From positions 32,001 through 96,000 of IMG/VR virus record IMGVR_UViG_3300028920_000029: a stretch of DNA of 64,000 nucleotides. One strand, 5' to 3'. The position numbers were made by a program, and so were the translations under genes. The notes beneath the pieces were generated by a model that was not told the origin of the DNA, searched no databases, and saw nothing but the letters and a program-made list of their open reading frames with translations. This document shows, in pieces, positions 8,538 to 30,996 of the stretch. This stretch comes from a virus. How positions within the stretch are numbered: the stretch's first letter is position 1; each line of letters begins with the position of its first letter.

Positions 8538-10271
8538 GTGATTGTTGAGCAGGTTGATCCACTCAGGTTTGTAGAGGAACACTTTACATTACAGGGAAAG
8601 CCATTTATTTTACTAGATGATACCCCAGACAATGCTAGGCATTATTTGCAAGGTATGTATAATACTATTGTCTTTAGGGCACCAGTACTAAAGAAACCCA
8701 TAATTATTGTTAAGGGTCGTCAGGTTGAGATGACAACTACAATGAATAACCTAGTGGCATACTATTTAGCCAACAATAAGTTCTTTGATATTTTGTACAC
8801 GTTTCCTAAAGGGGACCAGGCTAAGCGTTTTTCTGATACAAGGTTTGATCCGTTACTTAGGTATATGAGCGCTGCAGATATACTTCCAAGACTTAAAGAC
8901 GGTACTTATAATAAATCAGTTAAGCAGTTTGCTAATGGTTCCACGTTGTTTATTTATGGTGCGGCGGATAAAGGTGATAACATTCGAAGTATTGCTGCGC
9001 AGATGCTTATAAAGGATGAGTATCAGGATATGGATAAGGCCGTAGAGGAAACGATAGATGAAACATTAACTCACTCGAAGTATAAGCTAAACATATCTTT
9101 AGGTACGCCAAAGTATACGGCCACGAGATTTGAGGAGAGATGGAAACAATCTAATATGATGTACTACAATTTGTTTTGTGAGTCTTGTGGTACACCTTTC
9201 GTATTAACCATGGATAGAATGGTTAAGGAGCATATAGTTAGGTGCCCTAAATGTAAGCATGACGCTGATAAGAGATTACTTATTCCTAACGGTAAGTGGA
9301 TGCACCACGGAGAGAAGGACGCCGACTATTTAGGATTTCACTTATCTCAGCTATACGTACCTTATATAACACTTGAGGAGTTACAAAGGAAAATAAAGCA
9401 GCGTGAGCAGGAAGGGGCCGACGTAGAGCGGTATATTAAGAACGAAATATTAGGGGAGTTTTATAGTGGTATTAGGCAGCAGCCCGACAGAAACGTTATA
9501 AGACGGGCGTTTAATAGGGAGCTACCGTATGATGTGTTTATTCCTATGCATATTAGGGTATATATGGGAATTGATTGGGGTGGTTGGAATTCTATTGACA
9601 ACAACCCAGAAAGCAGCTATACTGTAGTTAGTATAGGAGCGTTTGATAAGTTTGGTAATTTGAGAGTAAACTACATAGAAGTTATAGATGAAAAGGATGA
9701 GATGAAGCAGGTGGATAGAGTATCGCAGCTTATAGATAAGTATCACGTATATCTAGCGGTAGCCGACAAAGGTTATGGTAAAGTAAAGAATCATCACCTT
9801 AAGGTTAAGTGGGGTAATAGATTTAAGGATTGTAAGTATCTACAAGGTAGTGCTGGTACGTTATATAAAGAAGGAGATAATGGTACTATTATGATAAACA
9901 GGGATTATTCATTAGAGGAACTATATTCGTCTATGGGTAATGGTAATATGCAGATTCCGCATAACGATCGTACAGAGTGGATCATAGAGCATTTTCTTAA
10001 TCATGAGATTATGGTTGAGGAACACGGAGGAACCGTGTACAAAAGATTTGTTAAGGTTGACGGGCATAATAAAAGAACTGACGCTGTACATTCTATAAAC
10101 TATTTAAGGATAGCAGCGTTTAAAGATAATAAAGCTTATGACCACTCACCGCTTATAGGGGCAGATAAGAAAAGGCATCAGGCCCCGAGGCCTAGGTTAT
10201 CTGGATCGGCTTTGGAAGGGCCGACTATGATGAAAATCCATAAACAGTTAAAAGCTATGAGAAGGTCCTAA
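8538..10271 (+). CDS. terL: Terminase large subunit
   Basis: KGRQVEMTT Walker A-like, LIKDEYQD Walker B, GTPK coupling motif, CESC/CPKC Zn ribbon, GIDWG RNase H-like nuclease motif; adjacent to the portal. Confidence 0.92.
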   Translation: MIVEQVDPLRFVEEHFTLQGKPFILLDDTPDNARHYLQGMYNTIVFRAPVLKKPIIIVKGRQVEMTTTMNNLVAYYLANNKFFDILYTFPKGDQAKRFSDTRFDPLLRYMSAADILPRLKDGTYNKSVKQFANGSTLFIYGAADKGDNIRSIAAQMLIKDEYQDMDKAVEETIDETLTHSKYKLNISLGTPKYTATRFEERWKQSNMMYYNLFCESCGTPFVLTMDRMVKEHIVRCPKCKHDADKRLLIPNGKWMHHGEKDADYLGFHLSQLYVPYITLEELQRKIKQREQEGADVERYIKNEILGEFYSGIRQQPDRNVIRRAFNRELPYDVFIPMHIRVYMGIDWGGWNSIDNNPESSYTVVSIGAFDKFGNLRVNYIEVIDEKDEMKQVDRVSQLIDKYHVYLAVADKGYGKVKNHHLKVKWGNRFKDCKYLQGSAGTLYKEGDNGTIMINRDYSLEELYSSMGNGNMQIPHNDRTEWIIEHFLNHEIMVEEHGGTVYKRFVKVDGHNKRTDAVHSINYLRIAAFKDNKAYDHSPLIGADKKRHQAPRPRLSGSALEGPTMMKIHKQLKAMRRS

Positions 10272-10283
10272 CGGAGGTACTAT

Positions 10284-11909
10284 ATGTACATTGAGAAAAA
10301 TCAGCCACAGATGAGTTCAAGATCAAAAAATATAATTAAGAACTCTCAGGCTTCTACTCCTGCAAATGTATTACGCAGGGAAGCGGCTATAGGTACTAGC
10401 GCTATGAGTCCTGGAGTTTTAGGTGCGGTTAACAGTGGTCCAGTTTTACGTATGGCTATGAAGCCGTTCTCTCCACTATACCAAGAATCTAACCTCATGC
10501 TTCCAAAAGATAGGAAGACCATGAACGCTTATAATAGACATTACTATGAAACGGACTACTGGGTAGGCAATGCTATAGAACTACATACAACCTTCCCGTT
10601 GGGAGGGTTTCAGATAATTTCAAGGCACAAAGAAATAGAAAAAGTGTTTAACAAGATGGCAAAAAAGATAGACTTATATAATATACTATTGGCAGTTGGT
10701 TTGGAATATTGGATATACGGAGAGTCATTCCCATTCTTAGAGTGGGATGAGACAGAAGGAATGTGGTATAGGGCAACCGTATTTAATCCAGACCTTATTG
10801 AAGTACGTAGGACTCCGTTCTCTAACAAATCAATAATATCACTTATACCAGATTCAGAACTTAAACGAATAGCGACATCGACTCACCCCTCTGACCAGGT
10901 ATTACGTTCGCAGATATCGCCGAAGATTCTCGATTACGTCCTAAAGGGTGAGTCGATTCCTTTAAACTTTAGAAACGTTGCTCACGTAGTTAGAAAGACG
11001 GTCCACCATGACGTTAGAGGAACATCTATTATTCAGCGTGTTTGGAAAGAGCTTATGCTTAGAGACGCTATGAGAGAGGTTCTTTTTGTTATGGCGCAGA
11101 ACCACATAACTCCGTTAAAGATATTTAGGATTGGAGGGAAGGAGAAAGATTACTTCCCGACGGATGATGAACTTGAGTACTGGCAGGGTATAGTTGAGGA
11201 AGCTCAGAACGACCCGAACTACTCAATTGTTACTCACGAAGCTTTCGATGTAGAGTATAAAGGTTTTACTGGGCAGGTCCTTGACGTTACACAATACTTA
11301 AAGCTTATAGAAGATCACGTTCTTCAGGGTCTTGGAGTTACTAAGGCTATCATTTCTGCCGAGGGTGTTGCTTATGCTAATGCTTCTGTAGCGTATGAAA
11401 TTCTACAGAAGAGATACTCATATGTTAGAAACGTTATGTCTCAATGGCTTATCAATAAGGTATTTATGCCAGTGTCCATCGCACACGGATTTAAAGATAA
11501 GCGTGGGGGATATATAGTTCCTATGATTAAGTGGGACAACATATCCTTTACTAAGGATGGAGATTGGAGAAGGATGATTGTTGACCTTAATAAGTCTAAA
11601 AAGGTATCTGATAGAACACTCATTACTGAAGTTGGTCTTGACTACGACGAAGAGCAGGAGCTAGTAATTAAAGAACAAGTAGCGGCCAAACTTAAGAAGG
11701 AAAATATAAAAGCTATGCAGGATCAGGCCGAAAGCGGAGGTCTTGGGGACCTTGGCGGTATGGGAGGCGGAATGGATCTTGGTGGCGGCATGGGAGGAAT
11801 GGGCGGAGGAATGTCTGACCTAGGAGACTTAGGAGAGGGATTTGCTGGCGAAGGTGGAGAAGTTCCTTCAGGAGAAATGGGAGGCGGCGAGGAACTCGGC
11901 GCTCCATAA
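10284..11909 (+). CDS. Portal protein
   Basis: Follows terL; EYWIYGESFPF, RGTSIIQRV and SAEGVAYANASVA portal-type motifs; Gly/Met/Glu-rich tail. Confidence 0.88.
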   Translation: MYIEKNQPQMSSRSKNIIKNSQASTPANVLRREAAIGTSAMSPGVLGAVNSGPVLRMAMKPFSPLYQESNLMLPKDRKTMNAYNRHYYETDYWVGNAIELHTTFPLGGFQIISRHKEIEKVFNKMAKKIDLYNILLAVGLEYWIYGESFPFLEWDETEGMWYRATVFNPDLIEVRRTPFSNKSIISLIPDSELKRIATSTHPSDQVLRSQISPKILDYVLKGESIPLNFRNVAHVVRKTVHHDVRGTSIIQRVWKELMLRDAMREVLFVMAQNHITPLKIFRIGGKEKDYFPTDDELEYWQGIVEEAQNDPNYSIVTHEAFDVEYKGFTGQVLDVTQYLKLIEDHVLQGLGVTKAIISAEGVAYANASVAYEILQKRYSYVRNVMSQWLINKVFMPVSIAHGFKDKRGGYIVPMIKWDNISFTKDGDWRRMIVDLNKSKKVSDRTLITEVGLDYDEEQELVIKEQVAAKLKKENIKAMQDQAESGGLGDLGGMGGGMDLGGGMGGMGGGMSDLGDLGEGFAGEGGEVPSGEMGGGEELGAP

Positions 11910-19767: not shown

Positions 19768-20796
19768 ATGGAAATAATTAACAAGAAAAACTCACTCGAC
19801 AAAAAGGCTAGCGTTAGCTTCGGCGACGACGGCCACATTAACGCCTCCGACCGAACAGACGCGATTAAAAGGGTTGCCAAGTACTTAAAAGCTGGCGACG
19901 AAGGTTCATATGATGAGAAGGTGTCTAACCTCTTTACCGCAGAAGAGCAGACACAGTTAACGAACAGATTTGCTTCACAGAATACAAGGTACGTAATTGG
20001 TCAGGCAATGGCTTCACCTCTTAAAACATTCTTAGAATATAAGGGTGTTATGAGAAGAGCGCTTAGGGTCGATCCTCTCGCCCCTGGTGCGCTGCCTGTG
20101 TACGACAGGGATACTGAGGAAATCTCAGCAGACGTCCTTGCAGCACAGTCTTCAGTAGATCAGACAAGGGTAATCGGCGACAGGATATACGTTCCAGTAT
20201 TTGAAATCGCTGCATATCCTACTGTTAAACTGAGGGAAATCAAGATCAGAAGGTTCAACATGATTGACCGTATCCAGGTTAGGACAAGGCAGTTCATGCA
20301 GGAATCAGAAGATGCGACAATCATCAACCTTATTGATACAGCTTCAACAAGAGACAACACCGAGTTGACTGTTGACACATCTGACTCAGGAAACGGTCTC
20401 GGCTACATCAAGAGGCTCGACCTTGTTAAGTTGGCTCGACAGATCACAAGGCACGACCTGTTCGCAGTTTCTTACTTCATGTCAATATACCGCTACAGCG
20501 ATATAGAAATGTGGGGAAGAGACGAGCTCGATATTCTGACACAGAAACAGATTATCGACACAGGCTTGCTGGCAACACTGCACGGTAAGAATATCTACGT
20601 AACCAAGAAAATTGAGTACGATACGATATACTGTACCTCAGACCCTGACTACGTTGGAATTTTCCCAGTGTACCAGGACATCGAGGTAATCCCTGCTGAC
20701 ATACCTTACCAGACATCGTTTGGCTGGGTATTCACAGAGCTTATAGGTGCCGCGATTTTCAATGGAAAAGGTGTTGCAAAGACAACTATTTCCTAA
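19768..20796 (+). CDS. Major capsid protein (HK97 fold)
   Basis: GQAMASPL...L.PG.LP.YD, FEIAAYPTV, EDATII and FGWVFTELIG motifs, plus position. From memory it resembles the capsids of mycobacteriophage cluster C (Bxz1/Myrna-like) myoviruses; not verified by search. Confidence 0.88.
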   Translation: MEIINKKNSLDKKASVSFGDDGHINASDRTDAIKRVAKYLKAGDEGSYDEKVSNLFTAEEQTQLTNRFASQNTRYVIGQAMASPLKTFLEYKGVMRRALRVDPLAPGALPVYDRDTEEISADVLAAQSSVDQTRVIGDRIYVPVFEIAAYPTVKLREIKIRRFNMIDRIQVRTRQFMQESEDATIINLIDTASTRDNTELTVDTSDSGNGLGYIKRLDLVKLARQITRHDLFAVSYFMSIYRYSDIEMWGRDELDILTQKQIIDTGLLATLHGKNIYVTKKIEYDTIYCTSDPDYVGIFPVYQDIEVIPADIPYQTSFGWVFTELIGAAIFNGKGVAKTTIS

Positions 20797-21016: not shown

Positions 21017-21625
21017 GTGAACATAACTAGATTGGCTTTGAAAGCTAAGAAAAAGTACGTAACTGATTCCAAAGAGTATATGAGGTTGCATTGCCAAGCT
21101 TATAGGTATGAATTCAAACTTAAGGCTTTAAAGATTTATGGTTTGGTTTGTGCTGAGTGCGGGATGGATGACCCAGATACTTTATGTTTTGACCATATTG
21201 GTGGCGTAAGGAAGGAAGATAGGTCACCCTCGTTCATTTATAGGTTGGTGCGGGAACCTAAAAGAGAGGATATCCAGATACTTTGTGCGAACTGTAACTG
21301 GAAAAAGCAAAGTAACCTTTATACTAGACGTAGCCCAAGGACATACTTTACCACTAAAGTTAAGGTGTTGAGGGCTTATAGTACCACACCTGAGGCTTCT
21401 TGTGTGTTATGTGGCGAGAATGATATAGAATTACTTTGTGTTGATCATATTGACGGGGGAGGAAACAAACATAAGCGTACAGCTAATATTAAGGGACGAC
21501 TACCTACTTGGTTAAAAAAGCATAATTATCCGCCAGGATACAGAACCTTGTGTTTTAATTGTAATTTGAAATCATATATAAAACTAGCACGTGCAAGGCT
21601 TCACGAGGTCTTGCACGCTCCGTAA
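21017..21625 (+). CDS. Tandem double-HNH endonuclease (free-standing, homing-type)
   Basis: Two CxxCG...DHI...LCxNCN units (CAECG..FDHI..LCANCN and CVLCG..VDHIDGGG..LCFNCN). Confidence 0.85.
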   Translation: MNITRLALKAKKKYVTDSKEYMRLHCQAYRYEFKLKALKIYGLVCAECGMDDPDTLCFDHIGGVRKEDRSPSFIYRLVREPKREDIQILCANCNWKKQSNLYTRRSPRTYFTTKVKVLRAYSTTPEASCVLCGENDIELLCVDHIDGGGNKHKRTANIKGRLPTWLKKHNYPPGYRTLCFNCNLKSYIKLARARLHEVLHAP

Positions 21626-22740: not shown

Positions 22741-23751
22741 ATGGAAAAGAGAAAACGTGGAAAGAAAGTTACGGTAGTATGCGACGCTTGTGGTAAGGAG
22801 TTCACTAAGCCACCTAGCCTCGTGAAATCACGAAACTATTGTAACCGAGAATGTAAGGCGAAGGGAAACTCAATGCTCTTTGATCAGGAACCAGAGAGGC
22901 GTAAGTTGGCAGCTCAGAAAACTAAGGAACAGCTTGCAACCAAGGGCCACCCCAGTATTGGTAGGCACCATAACGCTGAAACCAAGATTAAGATAAGTGA
23001 AAAGCGCAAAGCCTTTTATCAAACTGAGGAAGGTAAAGAAGCCAGGACTAAGATATCCGAGCAGCGTAGGGCCAGCGCTGGTAACTATCATCACTCCGAT
23101 GAAACCATCGAGAAGATACGAGCCAAGAAGCTAGAGCGTGATAAGGACCCAAGCTACCAGGACAAGATTAACGACTCACTAGAAGAAAAGCGAAAGGACC
23201 CAGAGTACCATAAGAACCTTAGTGAAGGGGTTAAGCGTTTCCATGCTAGTCCAGAAGGACATGAGGTAGCCAAGCGTAAGAGTATTAAGATGAGACTAAT
23301 AAAAAAATCGTTCTATAAAACTCCTGAAGGTAAGCTGGTTAGGGGGAAATTAAGTAGTCTCATGTCTGATAAAATAGTTTCAGGAGAAATAAAGCCCAAT
23401 AGTCATGGGCACTTCGGTATACGCGCGGATCTTAACGAAGTCTTTAGGTCCAACTTAGAAGCTAACTACGCCAGGATACTTAAGTACAAAGGTACCTCAT
23501 ATGAATATGAGAATACGACATTTAAACTTAGTACTGGGCAGACTTACACACCAGACTTTTACTTACCAGATACTGACGAATATGTAGAACTAAAAGGATA
23601 TTATAAGGCAGGAGAAAGACTTAAGTACGATATGTTTAAAAAGGAGTACCCCAACGTGAAGTGGAGAATTATACTACAGACATCACAGGAGTGGGAAGAC
23701 TTAAGGAGTAAGTACAAACCCTTAATCCCACTATGGGAAGGAGTAAAATGA
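22741..23751 (+). CDS. Free-standing homing-type endonuclease (Zn finger, NUMOD3-like repeats, PD-(D/E)XK domain)
   Basis: CDACGKEF..YCNREC; HNAETKIKISEK and HSDETIEKI repeats; FRSNLE...YEYE...YTPDFYLP...YVELKG. Confidence 0.85.
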   Translation: MEKRKRGKKVTVVCDACGKEFTKPPSLVKSRNYCNRECKAKGNSMLFDQEPERRKLAAQKTKEQLATKGHPSIGRHHNAETKIKISEKRKAFYQTEEGKEARTKISEQRRASAGNYHHSDETIEKIRAKKLERDKDPSYQDKINDSLEEKRKDPEYHKNLSEGVKRFHASPEGHEVAKRKSIKMRLIKKSFYKTPEGKLVRGKLSSLMSDKIVSGEIKPNSHGHFGIRADLNEVFRSNLEANYARILKYKGTSYEYENTTFKLSTGQTYTPDFYLPDTDEYVELKGYYKAGERLKYDMFKKEYPNVKWRIILQTSQEWEDLRSKYKPLIPLWEGVK

Positions 23752-24146
23752 AAAGCTACGTTAACTTAAAAAAGTTAGGATCAGATGTGTTATCCCAACT
23801 TAAAGATGAAAATAAAAAGCAGCTGTATAAAGATGCAGTTAAGGCGCTGCCACTTTTATCTAAGTTTGAGCTCCACCCGCCCATTAGTCCTGGTTACTAT
23901 GATATAATACTTACATTAGACACATCAGGGTTACTTCAGAGTACGGCTACAGCCATAGTTAACAAGATTTTAGATGCTGGTCAGGAGTTATTTGATAAAC
24001 GTATAGTGGATATAGACGGTGCAGTGAGTTTTACTGGTGGTAGACTATGGTTGTTTGGTCAGGGAAAAGACAGCTTTATGTCGGTTATTAACCAGGGCGC
24101 CAAAATTGACACTATAGACGTAAGTATAGGAGAAGTAATAAAATAA
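23748..24146 (+). CDS. VNLKK-tagged paralog-family protein
   Basis: Start at ATG 23748 (GGAAGGAG RBS): MKSYVNLKKLG then LPLLSKF...LTLDTS. Confidence 0.7.
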   Translation: MKSYVNLKKLGSDVLSQLKDENKKQLYKDAVKALPLLSKFELHPPISPGYYDIILTLDTSGLLQSTATAIVNKILDAGQELFDKRIVDIDGAVSFTGGRLWLFGQGKDSFMSVINQGAKIDTIDVSIGEVIK

Positions 24147-25639
24147 AGCTTATAGGAGAGAAAGGTAGTGGAAATAGATAACAAAGCTACAGAAGAGCAA
24201 GGTTTAGAGTTGGCGTATAGACTAATTCCTTTTCTACGGAAGTTTACTTACAAGAAATTTTCTCCTAGGTCTATGACGCTACACTGGACTTTGGACGTAT
24301 CAAAAATGTCCAGGCAGTTTATTATTAGTATAATGAAAAAACTAGCTGAGCTGCATAATATCGAAGATTTAAATTATAGACCTTCTAAAAGGATGCTAAA
24401 TTGTTTTTTGCGAGATGAGCACGGACGTGGAATAACTAATAACTTTGTTACTCCTCATTCGATAGAACACACAGTAGCTACGGAGCCTAATATTCCCACG
24501 CTTATAACCGAAGAGCTTGCGCTTAATAGCGATGATATGGTTAAGAAATCTAAAAGCCTCGTTAACTTAAAGAAAGCAGCCAAAGACGGGGTGTTAGAAG
24601 AAATATATTCGATTCTTCCAGAGTTACGAAAGTTTTCTATGTTTCGGTATTTTGGTTCGGAAGCCAACCCATATACAGATTTTAAACTTAATGTGGAGGG
24701 TTGGTCTAGGACTGCTATAATAGGTGTGATGAAGCTCATAAGGCATTCTGGGTTTGTGGGTAAGCTACGAGCGGCGGGCAGTGGTGAGTTAATTAGCTCT
24801 TGGTATAACGACGAAAGCTTAAACATAGCCCTAGCGAACCCAAATATTTATCCCTTGTCCATATCTGTAAGGATATATGACATATCTATTCGTCCCACGC
24901 AAGCAGGAAGCCTCGTTAACTTAAAGAAAGTATCTACAGCTGACGGTAAATGGGAACTTAACTATATACTTAGTGTAGTCCCAGAGCTAAGCAAGTTTAA
25001 CATAAGTGCTCCTATACAAGTATATAACGGAGACCTGGTTCAGTTTAAGTTTAGTTTGGGTGCTGGGCCGCTCAGTAACGTTACTGTAGCTACCTTGCTA
25101 CGTAATATCTATAAAAAACTTATTGAGAACGCGAGGAATAATAAGCCTATACGGAATACTTATGCGGACATGTCCATAGAACTAAGTCCTCAACTTAAAG
25201 ATACGTCGGTTTTGGAAGATACCTACCCTGCGCTTGGTGAGGTAGTAGCTCAGGCCGAAAGAGGTAACATAGCTATACTTGCGATGTATATTATGACTCC
25301 CTCTAAAGAGTACCGAGATGGCGAACCAGAAAAAAGGAACCGACCTCTGCGGGACTATACGGATGCTAAGTCCTGCGTTAACTTAAAAAGAATATCAGCA
25401 GAAGATGAAAAGATGAATAACATACTTAGATATAAGGTTATGCAGCTTAGAAATGATAAGGATATAGAAGCTTATATTCCAGTGTATTATAAGAAGATAA
25501 TAGATAAGTTTAGGAAGGGTGAGCACCTGCAGCCCCCAGAAATCATGGGGTCCATTAAGTCTATCAACGACGCGTTAAAATCGTGGAGGGATAGCAAAGA
25601 GCACTACAGAAAGATGCACGGGAGTTACGTTAACTTAAA
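23759..25639 (+). repeat. Five copies of CGTTAACTTAAA (encoding x-V-N-L-K)
   Basis: Copies at 23759, 24560, 24914, 25376 and 25628; copies 2 and 3 share 23 nt (AAGCCTCGTTAACTTAAAGAAAG); a variant GTTAACTTA lies at 30700. Confidence 0.85.
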
Positions 25640-25991
25640 AAAGATAGCTGAAGATAAGCTGGACAAGTTTTGTCCGTCTTGTGGTATGATGGTTGACAGG
25701 TTGTACCCAGTTATTGGTAAGGAAAAGATATGCTATGATTGTTACAAGAAGATGCTTAGGGACCGTAAGAAGAAAGCTGGAAGGTTTGAAAGTGATAAAG
25801 AGTTGGAGGATGTTAAGGAACTCTTTGCTTACTTTGAGAAGCAGCCCTATCCATGGAACGAAAGGGCCGAAGCTATAGCAAAGAAGCATGATTACTATGG
25901 TACTCCGTTATCCATAGTTAAACGGATGTTAGTAAACATACAAAAGGAACAGCAGGGAGTAGATCAATTTCCAACTAAGGAGGATAAGTAA
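24168..25991 (+). CDS. Modular polyprotein of VNLK(K/R)-delimited cargo domains
   Basis: Four internal S-x-V-N-L-K-K/R motifs separate three P-x-L-x-K-F paralog domains, a helical domain and a CxxC-CxxC Zn finger. Confidence 0.75.
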   Translation: MEIDNKATEEQGLELAYRLIPFLRKFTYKKFSPRSMTLHWTLDVSKMSRQFIISIMKKLAELHNIEDLNYRPSKRMLNCFLRDEHGRGITNNFVTPHSIEHTVATEPNIPTLITEELALNSDDMVKKSKSLVNLKKAAKDGVLEEIYSILPELRKFSMFRYFGSEANPYTDFKLNVEGWSRTAIIGVMKLIRHSGFVGKLRAAGSGELISSWYNDESLNIALANPNIYPLSISVRIYDISIRPTQAGSLVNLKKVSTADGKWELNYILSVVPELSKFNISAPIQVYNGDLVQFKFSLGAGPLSNVTVATLLRNIYKKLIENARNNKPIRNTYADMSIELSPQLKDTSVLEDTYPALGEVVAQAERGNIAILAMYIMTPSKEYRDGEPEKRNRPLRDYTDAKSCVNLKRISAEDEKMNNILRYKVMQLRNDKDIEAYIPVYYKKIIDKFRKGEHLQPPEIMGSIKSINDALKSWRDSKEHYRKMHGSYVNLKKIAEDKLDKFCPSCGMMVDRLYPVIGKEKICYDCYKKMLRDRKKKAGRFESDKELEDVKELFAYFEKQPYPWNERAEAIAKKHDYYGTPLSIVKRMLVNIQKEQQGVDQFPTKEDK

Positions 25992-26137
25992 TGGCTACTA
26001 AAAAGCATGGGCGTAACAAAGACAAGTGTAAGTTGTATCAATCTAACGGGACTAGAAGAAAGAACAAAGTTAGGAATCTTAAGAAGAGATTAAAAGGGTA
26101 TAAGAGCCCAGAGAACTATATGATAGATGAAGATAAG
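25991..26137 (+). CDS. Small basic protein (48 aa, not in ORF track)
   Basis: TAATG coupling and AGGAGG RBS; MATKKHGRNKDKCKLYQSNGTRRKNK... Confidence 0.6.
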
Positions 26138-26157
26138 TTTATGATTGTGAAGGTAAA

Positions 26158-26268
26158 ATGAAGATACTTAAATATATTGCGTTTGGTTTTTGGATATTAG
26201 TAGCAATAGTTATATACATAGTCTGCGCAATATGGGACGGTATTAAGAGATTGTTTGGGAGGATATAG
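26158..26268 (+). CDS. Small single-TM peptide (36 aa)
   Basis: MKILKYIAFGFWILVAIVIYIVCAIWDGIKRLFGRI; overlaps the next start codon. Confidence 0.5.
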   Translation: MKILKYIAFGFWILVAIVIYIVCAIWDGIKRLFGRI

Positions 26269-26594
26269 TGTTTACTGTAGCAGGATGGAAAGAGGATGAG
26301 GACAGAGCGATGAAGACTGCCTACAAGTTGTATCAGAAACTTGTAGCCTCAGAGTATCCTGGTGTGAAGGATAAGGCGGAGAAGATAGCTAGCGACTTAG
26401 TGCTTAAAAATATAAATGTTTACGAAGCGTTGGGGGAGTTCAGGAGTATATTTGTTCCTTCTGAAAAAGAATTTAGTATGGAAGACGGGTCAACAATGGA
26501 ACACCTCAAAGAAAGACACGGACTTATAAAACTAATTTTAAAGGAGGGATACCATGTTACAGCTCCTAAAGTTTTTATTCGTAGGAAAGGATAA
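26268..26594 (+). CDS. Hypothetical protein, paralogous to the last module of 24168..25991
   Basis: AG...YP...AEKIA pattern shared with AG...YP...AEAIA; GGGAGG RBS. Confidence 0.65.
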   Translation: MFTVAGWKEDEDRAMKTAYKLYQKLVASEYPGVKDKAEKIASDLVLKNINVYEALGEFRSIFVPSEKEFSMEDGSTMEHLKERHGLIKLILKEGYHVTAPKVFIRRKG

Positions 26595-26862
26595 GTTTGC
26601 GCAGGAATGGTTTGATAAGATACTTGAAGCTACAGAGAGGTTGTCTAAGTCTGGGCAAAGAAAACTGTTTAAGACTGTGCTGGCTATGCTGTTAGTTTTT
26701 ATCCTGTGCATACTATTTATTGTAGTAGCTCACGATAAAGACTTTTTTCTTCAAGGAATACAAGCATTCCTGACGGCTATCTGTGTGTTGGCTGGAGTAT
26801 ATAGTGTGGCTAACTCAGTTGAGCATGCCACTGATGGAGGTAAGAAAAAGAATGGCAAGTAA
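26554..26862 (+). CDS. Holin-like two-TM membrane protein
   Basis: RK then two TM helices, GVYSVAN motif and a charged C-terminus. Confidence 0.5.
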   Translation: MLQLLKFLFVGKDKFAQEWFDKILEATERLSKSGQRKLFKTVLAMLLVFILCILFIVVAHDKDFFLQGIQAFLTAICVLAGVYSVANSVEHATDGGKKKNGK

Positions 26863-27250
26863 TCCAGAACCATATACTAAAGACCAGATAGTGGAATACA
26901 TAGTATCTTATCTTCCTAGTCTACGTAAGTTTGACTTATATAGCTTTGATGAGGTTCAGCCAAATAAGATGACCACTTTAGTGTTTAGGTTAGATGTATC
27001 TAAGTTTAATATATCTACGAGGGTAAAGCTAATTTACAACTTGGCTGACGCTGCTAAGGCTGTTAACGATACAGATGGCGCGTCTATTAGTTTTGACTCG
27101 CCTCTGTTTAAAAGGCTTGATGCTAACGGAGAAGACCTTTCGACGTCCTCTCGGTTCGTATTAAGGCAAGACGGGCATAGTGTGGTAGAAGAAAAGGCTG
27201 CAGACCCAAAGTTTCACTACATCGAAATGACGGTATTTTATTATGGTTGA
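26852..27250 (+). CDS. P-x-L-x-K-F paralog-family protein
   Basis: Start at ATG 26852 (GGAGG RBS); YLPSLRKF...FRLDVSKFNIST. Confidence 0.7.
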   Translation: MASNPEPYTKDQIVEYIVSYLPSLRKFDLYSFDEVQPNKMTTLVFRLDVSKFNISTRVKLIYNLADAAKAVNDTDGASISFDSPLFKRLDANGEDLSTSSRFVLRQDGHSVVEEKAADPKFHYIEMTVFYYG

Positions 27251-27351
27251 GGTGCAAATAGTTGAGTTTACTTGTAAGAATAATGTATACTATTACTAAG
27301 CGGACTAAAGAGCTTTACCTTCGGTACCGCTATGCTTAAAGGAGGTATGAT

Positions 27352-28221
27352 ATGTTTATAAAGACTGCTGATTGTTCTGTTGTAGACGTCTTAGATACCA
27401 GGAAAGCTGGGTCTATCTTTGATGAGATAGTTACCAACTCCGAGATAGCTAAGGCTTCTACGCTGGACGAGAGTGATATAAGGCGTCAAGGTTATAATAG
27501 GTTTAGGGCTATAGCCGAGAAACGTTCTGATCGTTTGGCTATAGCAACCAGAGCCATCTCAGCTTATGAAACTCACTCGTTTAACAAGAACGGTGATGCC
27601 TTTGAGAGGGATCAACTTGAGAAATTTCATAAGACGTTTATACTTAAGCCGCATCTTTGGGACCACGATTTATCAATAGGTTCAGTTAGGGGTATAATAG
27701 CTGACGCAAGTTGGAATCCAAAGGAAGACTATGTTGAGACGCTTATCTTTATTGATAGGGAACAGTTTCCTAAGTATGCTTCTAACGTGGAGAAGGGGTA
27801 CATAAATAGTTTTTCTATGGGAGTAGAAGTTAAGGAGGCTGAGTGTTCTATTTGTCACAATATCGCGCGGACACCCGCGGAATTATGTATTCACGCAGAA
27901 AGATACAAAGGACTTTACGTTCAGGGTAAGAAGTGTTTTGAGTTTAACAGGGACCTGGAGTTTATTGAGCAGAGTGCTGTTGCATCTCCAGCAGACCCAG
28001 ACTCACATACTTTGTACATACTGGCGCACGCAAAGGCTGGTCAGCATAAAGAGATAGAGAATCTTAGGAAGCTTGCGTCAATACTTGATAGCTATACAGA
28101 GGAAGACAAGCGTAGGTTTAACGATGAGTACTACCTTATCACATCTTCTGTTGATAGGTTGGCTACCAGAATAGCAAAGGATCTTGGGATATCGTTTGGG
28201 GATCCGAGGCGAGGTGAGTAA
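27352..28221 (+). CDS. Prohead (capsid maturation) protease
   Basis: NKNGDAF, LWDH (catalytic His candidate), GIIADA, SFSMG (catalytic Ser candidate), CSIC..C.H Zn insert, F.E.SAVASPAD. Confidence 0.8.
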   Translation: MFIKTADCSVVDVLDTRKAGSIFDEIVTNSEIAKASTLDESDIRRQGYNRFRAIAEKRSDRLAIATRAISAYETHSFNKNGDAFERDQLEKFHKTFILKPHLWDHDLSIGSVRGIIADASWNPKEDYVETLIFIDREQFPKYASNVEKGYINSFSMGVEVKEAECSICHNIARTPAELCIHAERYKGLYVQGKKCFEFNRDLEFIEQSAVASPADPDSHTLYILAHAKAGQHKEIENLRKLASILDSYTEEDKRRFNDEYYLITSSVDRLATRIAKDLGISFGDPRRGE

Positions 28222-28955
28222 TGGGGCACATATATAAATTCACAAAACATGTACTTGCATACTCACCATATTTTAATGAGGCTGAGAGAGTATACTTTGA
28301 TACATTATCAAAGGGTATTACTGGGTCATACCTAGTACTTGCTAAGTACGGTTTAGGTGGAGAAGCCAACAAAGATCTGAAGGATTTGTATAGGCACCTT
28401 AGTTGGTATAACCTTAAGAAGAACGACAAAGATTACAGGCCCACCGATTTAGGTATGCTGTTTAGTCAAATAGCTACGGTAGTGGATGAGTCTTTAGTAA
28501 AGCACGGAATAGTTAACAAGCAAGGACTTGATGAGTTTTTACCCAGGGATATATTAAGTAAGCTTCCGAGCACTCCCATGCAGCAGAACCCAAAGAATTA
28601 CATACCAGAAGAGCAAATGATTAAGGATACATCATTACGATCCGCGCCAGCTGAGAAGGATAAGGGAGTACTACAGTCATTGGAGGAACAAGCTATGGAT
28701 AGAAACAAAAAGTGGAAGGAGTATAGAGAGCACCAGGATACACCGCCAACCCCAGTTAGGGCCAGTCTTATAGGAAACATTCTTAAGAAAGGCGAGGCAG
28801 TAACACAGGATATAGGTAAGCTTCCTATGAGTAGTTCAGATGATATGAAGGAAGTAGCAAAGAAGACTAAGGATAACATCACAAAGAACAAGCAACTTCT
28901 TGACGAGGCCGACGCCTTAGCTGAAGATATGGAAGAGTTAGATAAGATTACATAA
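28221..28955 (+). CDS. Hypothetical protein, probably head-internal
   Basis: Coupled to the protease gene; charged C-terminal half. Confidence 0.65.
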   Translation: MGHIYKFTKHVLAYSPYFNEAERVYFDTLSKGITGSYLVLAKYGLGGEANKDLKDLYRHLSWYNLKKNDKDYRPTDLGMLFSQIATVVDESLVKHGIVNKQGLDEFLPRDILSKLPSTPMQQNPKNYIPEEQMIKDTSLRSAPAEKDKGVLQSLEEQAMDRNKKWKEYREHQDTPPTPVRASLIGNILKKGEAVTQDIGKLPMSSSDDMKEVAKKTKDNITKNKQLLDEADALAEDMEELDKIT

Positions 28956-28967
28956 GGAGTAACCTTA

Positions 28968-29909
28968 ATGGCATTTTATGAGTTGCACCGCTACGTTAGA
29001 AGGGTAGTAGTACAAGAGCTGCAGTTGTTGGTGAACGATCATCCAATGTACACCACAGATAGGGCTGACGACACTAAGTTTCAGACGTCCCCTACTAAGG
29101 TTATGGAACGATATAACTTTGACGGCAGACAGTACCCAGCTATAGTAGTTACCACTACTGAGTCTAACGAACAGCGTTTGTCTATGGACAGGCTAATAAC
29201 TGAGGCTTACGGGCACTCAAGAGCAGCTACTATGATGTCATATGTAACTCCTAAAGTGGTAGATGATTCAGAGTACACTGGCACATACTCTGATGCAGTG
29301 TACTTACTAGAGTACGCACAGACATTTGCTGAGGATGATGAGGATATTAAGCTTAAGAAATTCTCGGTAGCTGCAGTAGACGATGACCCCACAGGAGCAT
29401 CAGGAGATGTTGAGTGGTTTGATATTGTACCAGATGAAAGGCGCACAGATATAATAGATGGTGTAGAAATACATATAGGTTCTTTTAATGACATACGTCC
29501 TGGCAACCAAATATACATAGAGACGTTTGAGGATAACAGATACCTGGGAGATATATTCGGGAGCAGGTTTGATATATCTATGAACATATCTGTGTATGCG
29601 CAGACGCAGTACGAAACTGAAGAGTTACTTGATATGGTAAATTCGTGGTTCACATACTATTTACCACATCAATTATACTTTAAGCACAGCATCAACGCCA
29701 AAACAGTTAACACTAGTGGAGCAGTGGAAAAGGATGAGCGATACGGAGAAGAGGCGTTTACTGGTAACCTTACAGTTACGTTCTCTGTAGAACACCAGTT
29801 CTTTAACCCAGTAAATATAATGACGTCTTATCAGTTATGGCTAGCGCTTAGAGAGCAGGTAGACTCTACGACTGGGCAGATACTTTTACCTATAGAGATT
29901 GAGGATTAG
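28968..29909 (+). CDS. Tail completion/terminator-like neck protein
   Basis: RQYPAIVV and ISMNISVYAQTQYETEELLD pattern; position in the neck region. Confidence 0.6.
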   Translation: MAFYELHRYVRRVVVQELQLLVNDHPMYTTDRADDTKFQTSPTKVMERYNFDGRQYPAIVVTTTESNEQRLSMDRLITEAYGHSRAATMMSYVTPKVVDDSEYTGTYSDAVYLLEYAQTFAEDDEDIKLKKFSVAAVDDDPTGASGDVEWFDIVPDERRTDIIDGVEIHIGSFNDIRPGNQIYIETFEDNRYLGDIFGSRFDISMNISVYAQTQYETEELLDMVNSWFTYYLPHQLYFKHSINAKTVNTSGAVEKDERYGEEAFTGNLTVTFSVEHQFFNPVNIMTSYQLWLALREQVDSTTGQILLPIEIED

Positions 29910-29917
29910 GAGATACT

Positions 29918-30691
29918 ATGGCATATTTAAGAAACATACCAAGCAGCGGTGACCCGTTTGAGAAAGGTAAGAATGGATTTATACCATCTAATCCTACCGA
30001 CGCTGGGGTGGAGCAGAGGTTTGATAGCTTGACAGATAGGTTCCAACCTAAGGAACAGTATACAAGAAAGATATACCAGGTAGCAACTGGAGATGAGAAC
30101 GTACTGCACGAACATATTGAAAGGCTTAGCAGGATGATAGAAGCCAGAGGCGAGCTTGTAACGCTTGTTAAACGTAAACTTGATGGTGAAAGATGTAACT
30201 GCTATGATACAGTTATGGATGTTGTTAGGCGTAAGTATTGCTTGCAGTGTTATGGTACTAGGATAAAGAATGGTTATGAGCTATTTAATAATACTAATAG
30301 AGATGATGGTAAGATATACATAGCGGCTCCGTTTGCTGAAGCTAGGATAGATTGGGAAGACCACGGACGAGTACAGACGGAGGAGCTAACTTATTGGACT
30401 TTGCCGTATACCCCGTTAGAAAACGGAAGCACTACGTATTCTTACGACTGGTTAATAAGATATAATAATGATGGTACTGAGTTAGGAAGGTATTATATAC
30501 ATAATGTTAAACCTTCTAGGAGTGTAGATAACTATGTTACGTATCAACACTTTACGGCTGCGTTAGCAACAAGACCTACTTACGATCATGAAGGAACTAT
30601 GGTAAGGCGAGGCGATTTGATATATGAAGTGGATACTAGTACGTTAGATGTAGTTGAGGGAAACTTAGAAAAAGGAGCTGACGAACGATGA
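29918..30691 (+). CDS. Head closure/neck protein with Zn motif
   Basis: GERCNCYD...YCLQCYGT...GY pattern; position. Confidence 0.6.
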   Translation: MAYLRNIPSSGDPFEKGKNGFIPSNPTDAGVEQRFDSLTDRFQPKEQYTRKIYQVATGDENVLHEHIERLSRMIEARGELVTLVKRKLDGERCNCYDTVMDVVRRKYCLQCYGTRIKNGYELFNNTNRDDGKIYIAAPFAEARIDWEDHGRVQTEELTYWTLPYTPLENGSTTYSYDWLIRYNNDGTELGRYYIHNVKPSRSVDNYVTYQHFTAALATRPTYDHEGTMVRRGDLIYEVDTSTLDVVEGNLEKGADER

Positions 30692-30996
30692 AATCAGTAG
30701 TTAACTTATACAAGATAGCTAAGTGGGAAGCTGAGCATGAAGCTGCTCTTAAAGAAGATGCAATGAGAGAGAAGGGAGAACAAATAGAGGGAGGGCTTGC
30801 CGATAATATGACATTGGAAGACATAGCTAATAGGCATGGAGTAAACATGGGTAAGATAGTGTCACAAATAAATAAAGGTATCCGTGTTGAGTATGAGCAC
30901 ACGAATGATGCTAAACAAGCTATGGAGATAGCTAAGGATCATCTGGTTGAGGATTCAGAATACTACACAAAATTAGAAATGATAGAAAATCACTAA
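30688..30996 (+). CDS. DUF5661-like protein with an N-terminal VNLYKIA tag
   Basis: GGLAD, KGIRVEYEHT, EIAKDHL and YYTKL motifs. Confidence 0.75.
   Translation: MKSVVNLYKIAKWEAEHEAALKEDAMREKGEQIEGGLADNMTLEDIANRHGVNMGKIVSQINKGIRVEYEHTNDAKQAMEIAKDHLVEDSEYYTKLEMIENH

Follow-up and report, generated by a model that had tools for sequence, protein, structure and literature searches.

What is one short peptide doing at the front of unrelated domains, and again and again inside a single long reading frame, among the head genes of an uncultured phage? The question is raised by a 64,000-nt stretch of DNA (the window; bases 32001-96000 of the virus record IMGVR_UViG_3300028920_000029) from a phage genome recovered as a single contig of 173,362 bp with a GC content of 0.40. 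The element, here called the tag, reads S-x-V-N-L/M-K-K in this phage, and lies mostly close to the gene of a prohead maturation protease; coordinates are window positions unless marked 'genome'. The first-pass annotation of this stretch had proposed a modular payload system, in which the tag would serve as a head-targeting and cleavage label and, at the DNA level, as a microhomology for shuffling cassettes. The tag is conserved as a peptide throughout the phage's clade, beyond a local repeat. On balance, if only by a little, we favour its being a leader like the capsid-targeting sequence (CTS) of phage T4, which would send cargo to the prohead and be processed by the protease, multi-tag open reading frames (ORFs) being fused cargo genes cut at their tags.

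The tag in this phage and across its clade

Five exact copies of the repeat GTTAACTTAAA lie in one frame within 1.9 kb (23760, 24561, 24915, 25377 and 25629), at spacings of 801, 354, 462 and 252 nt. A copy with one mismatch is found at 30700, and no exact copy occurs outside the five-copy array in the whole 173,362-bp genome. Every copy encodes x-V-N-L-K-K/R in the same frame, so that the repeat, the in-frame spacings and the shared peptide are all as the first-pass annotation had described them; the 23 nt that it saw in common between two copies are an exact run in tags 2 and 3. Eight tags are present genome-wide. Four start separate genes (M-K-S-...), two of which lie outside the window (genome 20187 and genome 20368), and the other four are internal to a 607-aa ORF (24555-24581, 24909-24935, 25371-25397 and 25623-25649), with neither a Met nor an upstream ribosome-binding site. 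The modules behind these internal tags are two paralogs of a domain marked by P-x-L-x-K-F, a helical module and a zinc-finger module. This ORF and the tagged gene before it do share a frame and are separated by two stops (TAA and TAG), as had been noted, but a Shine-Dalgarno-like AGGAGAG precedes the GTG at 24168, and we therefore treat them as two separate genes. Read-through of the two stops was rejected, given this separate ribosome-binding site of the second ORF.

Related loci were gathered from IMG/VR and the JGI metagenomes through homologs of the protease, and provided 28 tags which, with the eight of this phage, make a set of 36 instances from six phages; the closest relatives (P0002-P0006, protease 66-79% identical, contigs up to 55 kb) were left aside in this comparison. 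The consensus spans nine residues, S-F/Y-V/I-N-F/L-K/R-K/R-L/I-A/S/G: out of 36, S occurs in 31, F/Y in 30, V/I in 36, N in 35, F/L in 34, K/R in 29 and 33 (positions 6 and 7), an aliphatic residue in 34 and A/S/G in 34. All related loci have small ORFs near the protease gene that start with M-S-F/Y-V/I-N-F-K/R-K/R-L/I-A/S, and in some longer ORFs the motif is internal. The tagged proteins are small, mostly unrelated to one another and mostly orphan. An 8.7-kb fragment (L013) carries about twelve tags in 5.5 kb. The strict DNA pattern matches five times in a complete 150-kb relative that has terminal repeats, each time within the 4.7 kb around the protease gene. A profile made from the 28 tags of the relatives only places the tags of this phage at ranks 1-5, 7 and 11 among 52,227 proteome positions. 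The proposal that the tag is a functional peptide element common to unrelated cargo domains thus gains support from its conservation in relatives and from its tie to the head module and the gene of a gp21-like protease.

The phage and its relatives form a small uncultured clade. The strict DNA pattern of the tag hits three IMG/VR contigs, one of them a chance match, which indicates that the clade is rare in that database. Single-sequence scans of IMG/VR with the protease and with the 607-aa ORF returned nothing, and relatives were reached only by a protease alignment. Cultured phages gave no DNA-level match to the phage, and the array gave none in nucleotide and tblastn searches; the tag motifs were not found in the literature searched, which is a part of the whole. 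Position 5 of the tag is L (once M) in this phage versus F in 27 of the relatives' 28 tags, and an additional K follows the Met here that is not seen in the relatives. Either the tags have been homogenised, or they have co-evolved with a putative binding partner.

Within this phage the tag codons are uniform: Val is GTT in 7 of 8 (usage 0.41), Asn is AAC in 8 of 8 (0.52) and Leu is TTA in 6 of 7 (0.33). In a codon-usage simulation none of 100,000 draws reached six of seven identical V-N-L 9-mers, and codon bias therefore does not explain the DNA identity. The 23-nt run of tags 2 and 3 includes the rare codons AGC and CTC, the paralog domains next to it being only ~20% identical, and the DNA flanking the tags is identical at random level. 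The five tags of the array are identical over 12 nt, whereas the three others differ. Relatives encode the same peptide with mixed codons, which argues for selection on the peptide. Most simply, the tags of the array would have been copied locally or homogenised by gene conversion in this lineage, with selection on the peptide acting throughout the clade as well. A microhomology role could conceivably follow from the uniformity, but the mixed codons show that it is no clade property, and this part of the first-pass proposal is, as stated, weakly supported.

The head module and a putative targeting and cutting label

The tag array and the protease gene belong to a head module on the + strand of the window (Table 1), in which the tags follow the capsid gene by 3-10 kb, and six of the eight tags are located at most 3.6 kb from the protease gene. 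The major capsid protein, which shares 37.6% identity with gp27 of Bacillus phage G, forms the shell into which cargo would go.

Table 1. Features of the head module and tag array (window positions).
Feature	Position	Strand	Remarks
Large terminase	8538-10271	+	
Portal	10284-11909	+	
Acidic scaffold-like protein, 850 aa	16183..18735	+	Conserved half-tag-like motifs near residues 353 and 571 (alignment A2)
Major capsid protein	19768..20796	+	PHROG major head protein, E 2.6e-54
HNH gene	21017-21625	+	Between the capsid gene and the gene of a conserved 273-aa protein
Homing-endonuclease-like gene	22741-23751	+	ATGA overlap at its end with the first tagged gene
Tagged gene 1	23748..24146	+	M-K + tag (tag 23754-23780), then P-x-L-x-K-F alpha/beta domain; ribosome-binding site GGAG 5 nt before ATG
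Multi-tag ORF, 607 aa	24168..25991	+	N-terminal P-x-L-x-K-F domain untagged, then four tagged modules
Fifth P-x-L-x-K-F paralog, untagged	26783..27250	+	Directly upstream of the protease gene (alignment A3)
Prohead maturation protease, 289 aa	27352..28221	+	PHROG head maturation protease, E 1.1e-13
Tagged DUF5661 gene	30688..30996	+	Tag 30694-30720, with Y instead of K at tag position 6

The protease aligns with homologs (23 sequences) in which the serine of an F-S-M-G motif and histidines are invariant. No solved relative was found with its sequence profile. When its AlphaFold model was compared to the PDB (VIA-align), the first match was T4 gp21 (5jbl_A, Z 8.1, root-mean-square deviation 3.5 over 123 residues, model residues 57-213), the assemblin of varicella-zoster virus reaching Z 5.7; Foldseek ranked gp21 first too, at E 0.04. 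By its predicted structure, the enzyme is of a gp21/assemblin-like fold. Phage G encodes a homolog, gp19 (E 2.9e-40).

The second half of the tag profile (hydrophobic-K/R-K/R-hydrophobic-A/S, the half-tag) was scored along the 23 aligned proteases. The highest scores fall at residue 238 (10.3 bits, z 4.8), on par with real tags, and at residue 51 (5.5 bits, z 3.8). The corresponding motifs (residues 51-55, 27502-27516, and residues 237-243, 28060-28080) flank the catalytic core (57-213), and the C-terminal helix of the protease bears the latter. Such bracketing would be expected if the enzyme trimmed or targeted itself via the motif, which is suggestive only, and it fits co-targeting no less than cleavage. 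In the scaffold-like protein, the conserved half-tag matches score 6.8 and 6.1 bits, versus at most 2.7 in two control head proteins.

We propose that the nine-residue leader marks cargo for entry into the core of the assembling prohead, where the gp21-like maturation protease would recognise the tag and probably cut at or beside it. Neighbouring cargo genes around the protease gene would have been fused repeatedly, and fusion would be tolerated because each internal tag remains a processing site. The 607-aa ORF would then be a polyprotein, released as separate head-internal proteins. The scissile bond, if there is one, lies more likely at the conserved small residue in position 9. Prohead targeting, cleavage, the place of this bond and ejection into the host are all inferred.

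Several observations weigh against this proposal. Two of the five P-x-L-x-K-F copies are untagged, at the N-terminus of the 607-aa ORF and at 26783, and two tagged genes lie 35 kb away from the protease gene. In the major capsid protein, the tag finds only a weak and unconvincing match. Confidence in the protease model is low, its predicted local distance difference test (pLDDT) score being 63. Half-tag motifs are common genome-wide, with 39 found versus 13.8 in shuffled sequences, early-strand genes included, which makes the half-tag weak evidence by itself; as a diagnostic on its own it was rejected. The Glu rule of gp21 and phiKZ is not obeyed either, as a small or hydrophobic residue-x-Glu occurs within 16 residues in only ~14 of the 36 tags, and a cleavage rule with Glu at P1 was rejected since no Glu is fixed after the tag.

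Cargo modules and gene fusion

The five P-x-L-x-K-F paralogs of this phage, three tagged and two untagged, are ~20% identical. The AlphaFold2 model of the one encoded at 23748-24146 is alpha/beta (pLDDT 73, predicted template modelling (TM) score 0.70), and its tag residues 1-11 score below 50, pointing to flexibility; this model has no convincing relative in the PDB (best E 0.016, TM about 0.3). The remaining cargo consists of the helical module, the zinc finger with four Cys, a DUF5661 domain (PF18905, E 2.3e-13), a 59-aa helical protein and a Gly-rich protein. The first-pass annotation had thus called the DUF5661 domain, the zinc finger and the P-x-L-x-K-F paralogs correctly. Most cargo has no Pfam or PHROG family, and none matched a known anti-defence family.

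Outside the window, genome 20368-20655 encodes a tagged Gly/Pro-rich protein of 95 aa, and the adjoining genome 20658-20864 an untagged DUF5320 gene (Pfam E 3.4e-10), the two together being L017:8368-8864. The two products have a D-G-T-G-P...G-R-G pattern in common, and a tagged module of the relative L004 contains a comparable G-P-G-x-G-R-G-L repeat.

Two relatives carry a ferritin-like half-domain, which is unrelated to DUF5661. It forms a free tagged protein of 82 aa in L002, and in L004 it makes up the C-terminus of a 524-aa ORF that has two tags, at 83% identity, the homology beginning ~25 residues downstream of the tag. The domain (L002:6782-7027; L004:7193-7783) has two helices with an E...E-x-x-H pattern. 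It matches Pfam Rubrerythrin (4.9e-5) and, in the PDB, bacterioferritin (2e-4), EncB (0.036) and encapsulated ferritins (0.3-1), the encapsulin cargos EncB, EncC and EncFtn being among the matches. As a candidate cargo of a phage head, a ferritin-like protein is unusual.

Comparison of the locus across relatives shows that cargo content and fusion differ, in line with a cassette system; the sole breakpoint that could be mapped is the one ~25 residues past the tag, and not at the repeat where the first-pass annotation had placed the joints. L002 has an extra tagged C-terminal module that is not in L004, and one of its internal tags is degenerate in L004. Nothing of similar length is related to the 607-aa ORF. 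A HMMER search found one partial relative, P0026, in which the zinc-finger module is untagged and joined via a tag-like S-S-V-N-L to a homolog of what is here the separate ORF 26268-26594. Internal tags without Met are found at domain boundaries in this phage, L001, L002 and L013. Several internal tags of the relatives have retained their Met together with an in-frame K-G-G, a translated Shine-Dalgarno sequence, as would be left by the loss of a stop codon between two tagged genes, and hence a signature of gene fusion. Judging from these alignments, the gain, loss and fusion of cassettes are real.

A degenerate, tag-like L-V-N-I-Q-K (25929-25946) lies 14 residues ahead of the stop of the 607-aa ORF, and an ORF in L013 terminates exactly in S-F-V-N-F-A-K-L (L013:5435-5461). 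These C-terminal sequences may be remnants of lost cassettes.

Other explanations and known systems

The T4 leader, ~10 residues long and N-terminal, is cut once, and the protein is then kept in the head (PMC8442874; PMC5694885). The system described here resembles it in having a leader of such length on otherwise unrelated proteins (IPI-III and Alt in T4, where they are non-essential), in its small cargo and in a phage-encoded protease of the gp21 fold. Two tags even read M-K-S-Y...I-A-E against M-K-T-Y-Q-E-F-I-A-E in T4 (PMC8442874), a likeness seen by eye in stretches too short for statistics. Yet the tag has no significant sequence relationship to the T4 leader, which ends in L/I-x-E, whereas no Glu is fixed here; what the tags and the protease termini share is instead hydrophobic-K/R-K/R-hydrophobic-A/S/G, where we infer cleavage. 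A further difference is that the tagged modules number up to about 12 per phage and cluster at the protease gene, with tags also inside fused multi-module ORFs, in a system known from sequence alone. Likeness to the T4 CTS, but in a larger and more modular use, seems by analogy the most likely description. Among phiKZ-like giant phages (proteases phiKZ gp175 and SPN3US gp245), diverged paralog families with a conserved N-terminus likewise go with a gp21-like protease: gp53 and gp54 of SPN3US share their first 15 residues and are diverged paralogs cut by such an enzyme (PMC5694885). Proteases of the T4 and phiKZ types reportedly also trim their own termini (PMC5694885), in the phiKZ-like phages the C-terminus. 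The propeptides of the phiKZ-like families, however, are mostly longer than 100 residues with cleavage after A/S/G-x-E, while the leader here has nine residues, stands on unrelated folds and recurs internally.

Encapsulins, which have an HK97-fold shell, load diverse cargo through short conserved peptides of a G-S-L-K/R type consensus, and the tag might likewise be a docking peptide that stays uncleaved, binding a pocket on the scaffold-like protein or on the inner face of the capsid protein, with internal copies for multivalent anchoring. A short conserved terminal peptide on diverse cargo, encoded near the gene of an HK97-type shell, would suit such a role, as would the lack of a fixed acidic P1 residue, the half-tag on the protease helix (as apt for co-targeting as for cleavage) and the tagged ferritin-like domain of the relatives, with its resemblance to encapsulated ferritins (E 0.036 to about 1 for EncB, EncC and EncFtn). 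We nevertheless regard docking without cleavage as unlikely: encapsulin peptides are usually C-terminal and uncleaved, the tag is N-terminal or internal and bears no likeness to their motif, the shell here is a DNA-packaging phage head with a maturation protease whose gp21-like gene sits mid-array, and cutting accounts more readily for fusion ORFs that keep four intact internal tags. A broader idea that we find doubtful is that the tag is a portable, general address of the capsid interior, N-terminal or internal and read by shell, scaffold or protease, with cargo freely gained, lost and fused; given the ferritin-like cargo of the relatives, the system would then be a living link between the targeting of phage internal proteins and encapsulin loading, and the tag could be used as it is to package foreign proteins. 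The tag could also serve a function unrelated to capsid loading, as an interaction motif of another late structure, a signal for degradation or for a chaperone, or a context for translation start, given that the tagged gene at 30688 sits among neck or tail-like genes and that the two tagged genes outside the window adjoin the gene of a 2,207-aa protein, far from the protease gene. This we think improbable, as internal copies without Met exclude a purely translational role, a secretion signal would be longer and less polar, and strict clustering at the protease gene in the complete relative, along with the half-tag within the protease, points to the head module.

Leaders of a similar format are trimmed by host cysteine proteases of the Prp type, from ribosomal protein L27 and from the capsid and scaffold proteins of the staphylococcal phage 80alpha, with the motif M-L-x-x-D/N-L-Q-F/L-F'A-S/H-K-K (PMC9405229). 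Like this nine- to ten-residue N-terminal leader, the relatives' tag counted from its Met has Asn in fifth place, a hydrophobic residue in ninth and Ala/Ser at 10-11, which would be past the cut, and a Bacillus-group phage has a distant relative of the capsid protein. Processing by Prp is all the same very unlikely, because the defining Q-F/L-F core is replaced by K/R-K/R-L/I, the leader in this phage is one residue longer (M-K-S...) and the capsid protein carries no leader, unlike that of 80alpha; a phage-encoded Prp was rejected, as PF04327 has no match in the genome at E <= 1. The least probable explanation, in our view, gives the DNA the primary role, the repeat being a recombination microhomology or nuclease target that moves cassettes and the peptide being secondary. 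The codon uniformity beyond what usage permits, the 23-nt run beside paralogs so diverged, the 12-nt identity confined to the array and the homing-endonuclease gene abutting tag 1 would all agree with it. But the tag codons of the relatives are mixed, the shared stretches of 12-23 nt are short for homologous recombination, the cargo boundary mapped in L002 versus L004 falls outside the tag, GTTAAC is not unusual in the genome (87 observed versus 56 expected), and the uniformity may be a by-product of local gene conversion or recent tag copying.

If the tag does address the prohead, as in the T4-like reading that we prefer, the set of injected or internal proteins of an uncultured clade could be defined by sequence alone. 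Arsenals would then evolve by cassette turnover and gene fusion, tolerated thanks to processing, and a second very short packaging tag, next to the T4 CTS, would be at hand for placing foreign proteins in capsids. The ferritin-like cargo raises the question of whether phage cargo targeting is related to encapsulin loading. A route to a bench test of the principle is offered by Bacillus phage G, which is cultured and has both the protease homolog and a repeated N-terminal leader of its own. Many of its ORFs near gp19 (L018, NC_023719, 797-30614) start with this other shared leader, of the K-R-L-I-K-K-A/S or S-R-L-K-K type. Genome-wide, a degenerate pattern for it at the DNA level has 11 forward matches versus 3 in a reversed control, and a mention in a relevant context was not found in the literature searched. 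Going by these matches, it may be an analogous leader in a cultured phage.

Some further features of the module were noted. Within the tag array, immediately before the protease region, this phage also encodes a small protein predicted to have membrane-spanning segments (window 26554-26862), which has counterparts in the relatives (L004:9152-9517; L002:8414-8767; L001:8618-9082). At the place of the HNH gene, between the genes of the capsid protein and the 273-aa protein, the relative L001 has an HNH gene as well. One protease homolog (P0015, 437 aa) contains the Hint/intein Pfam domains PF07591, PF05203 and PF14890, which suggests an intein inside a prohead protease gene.

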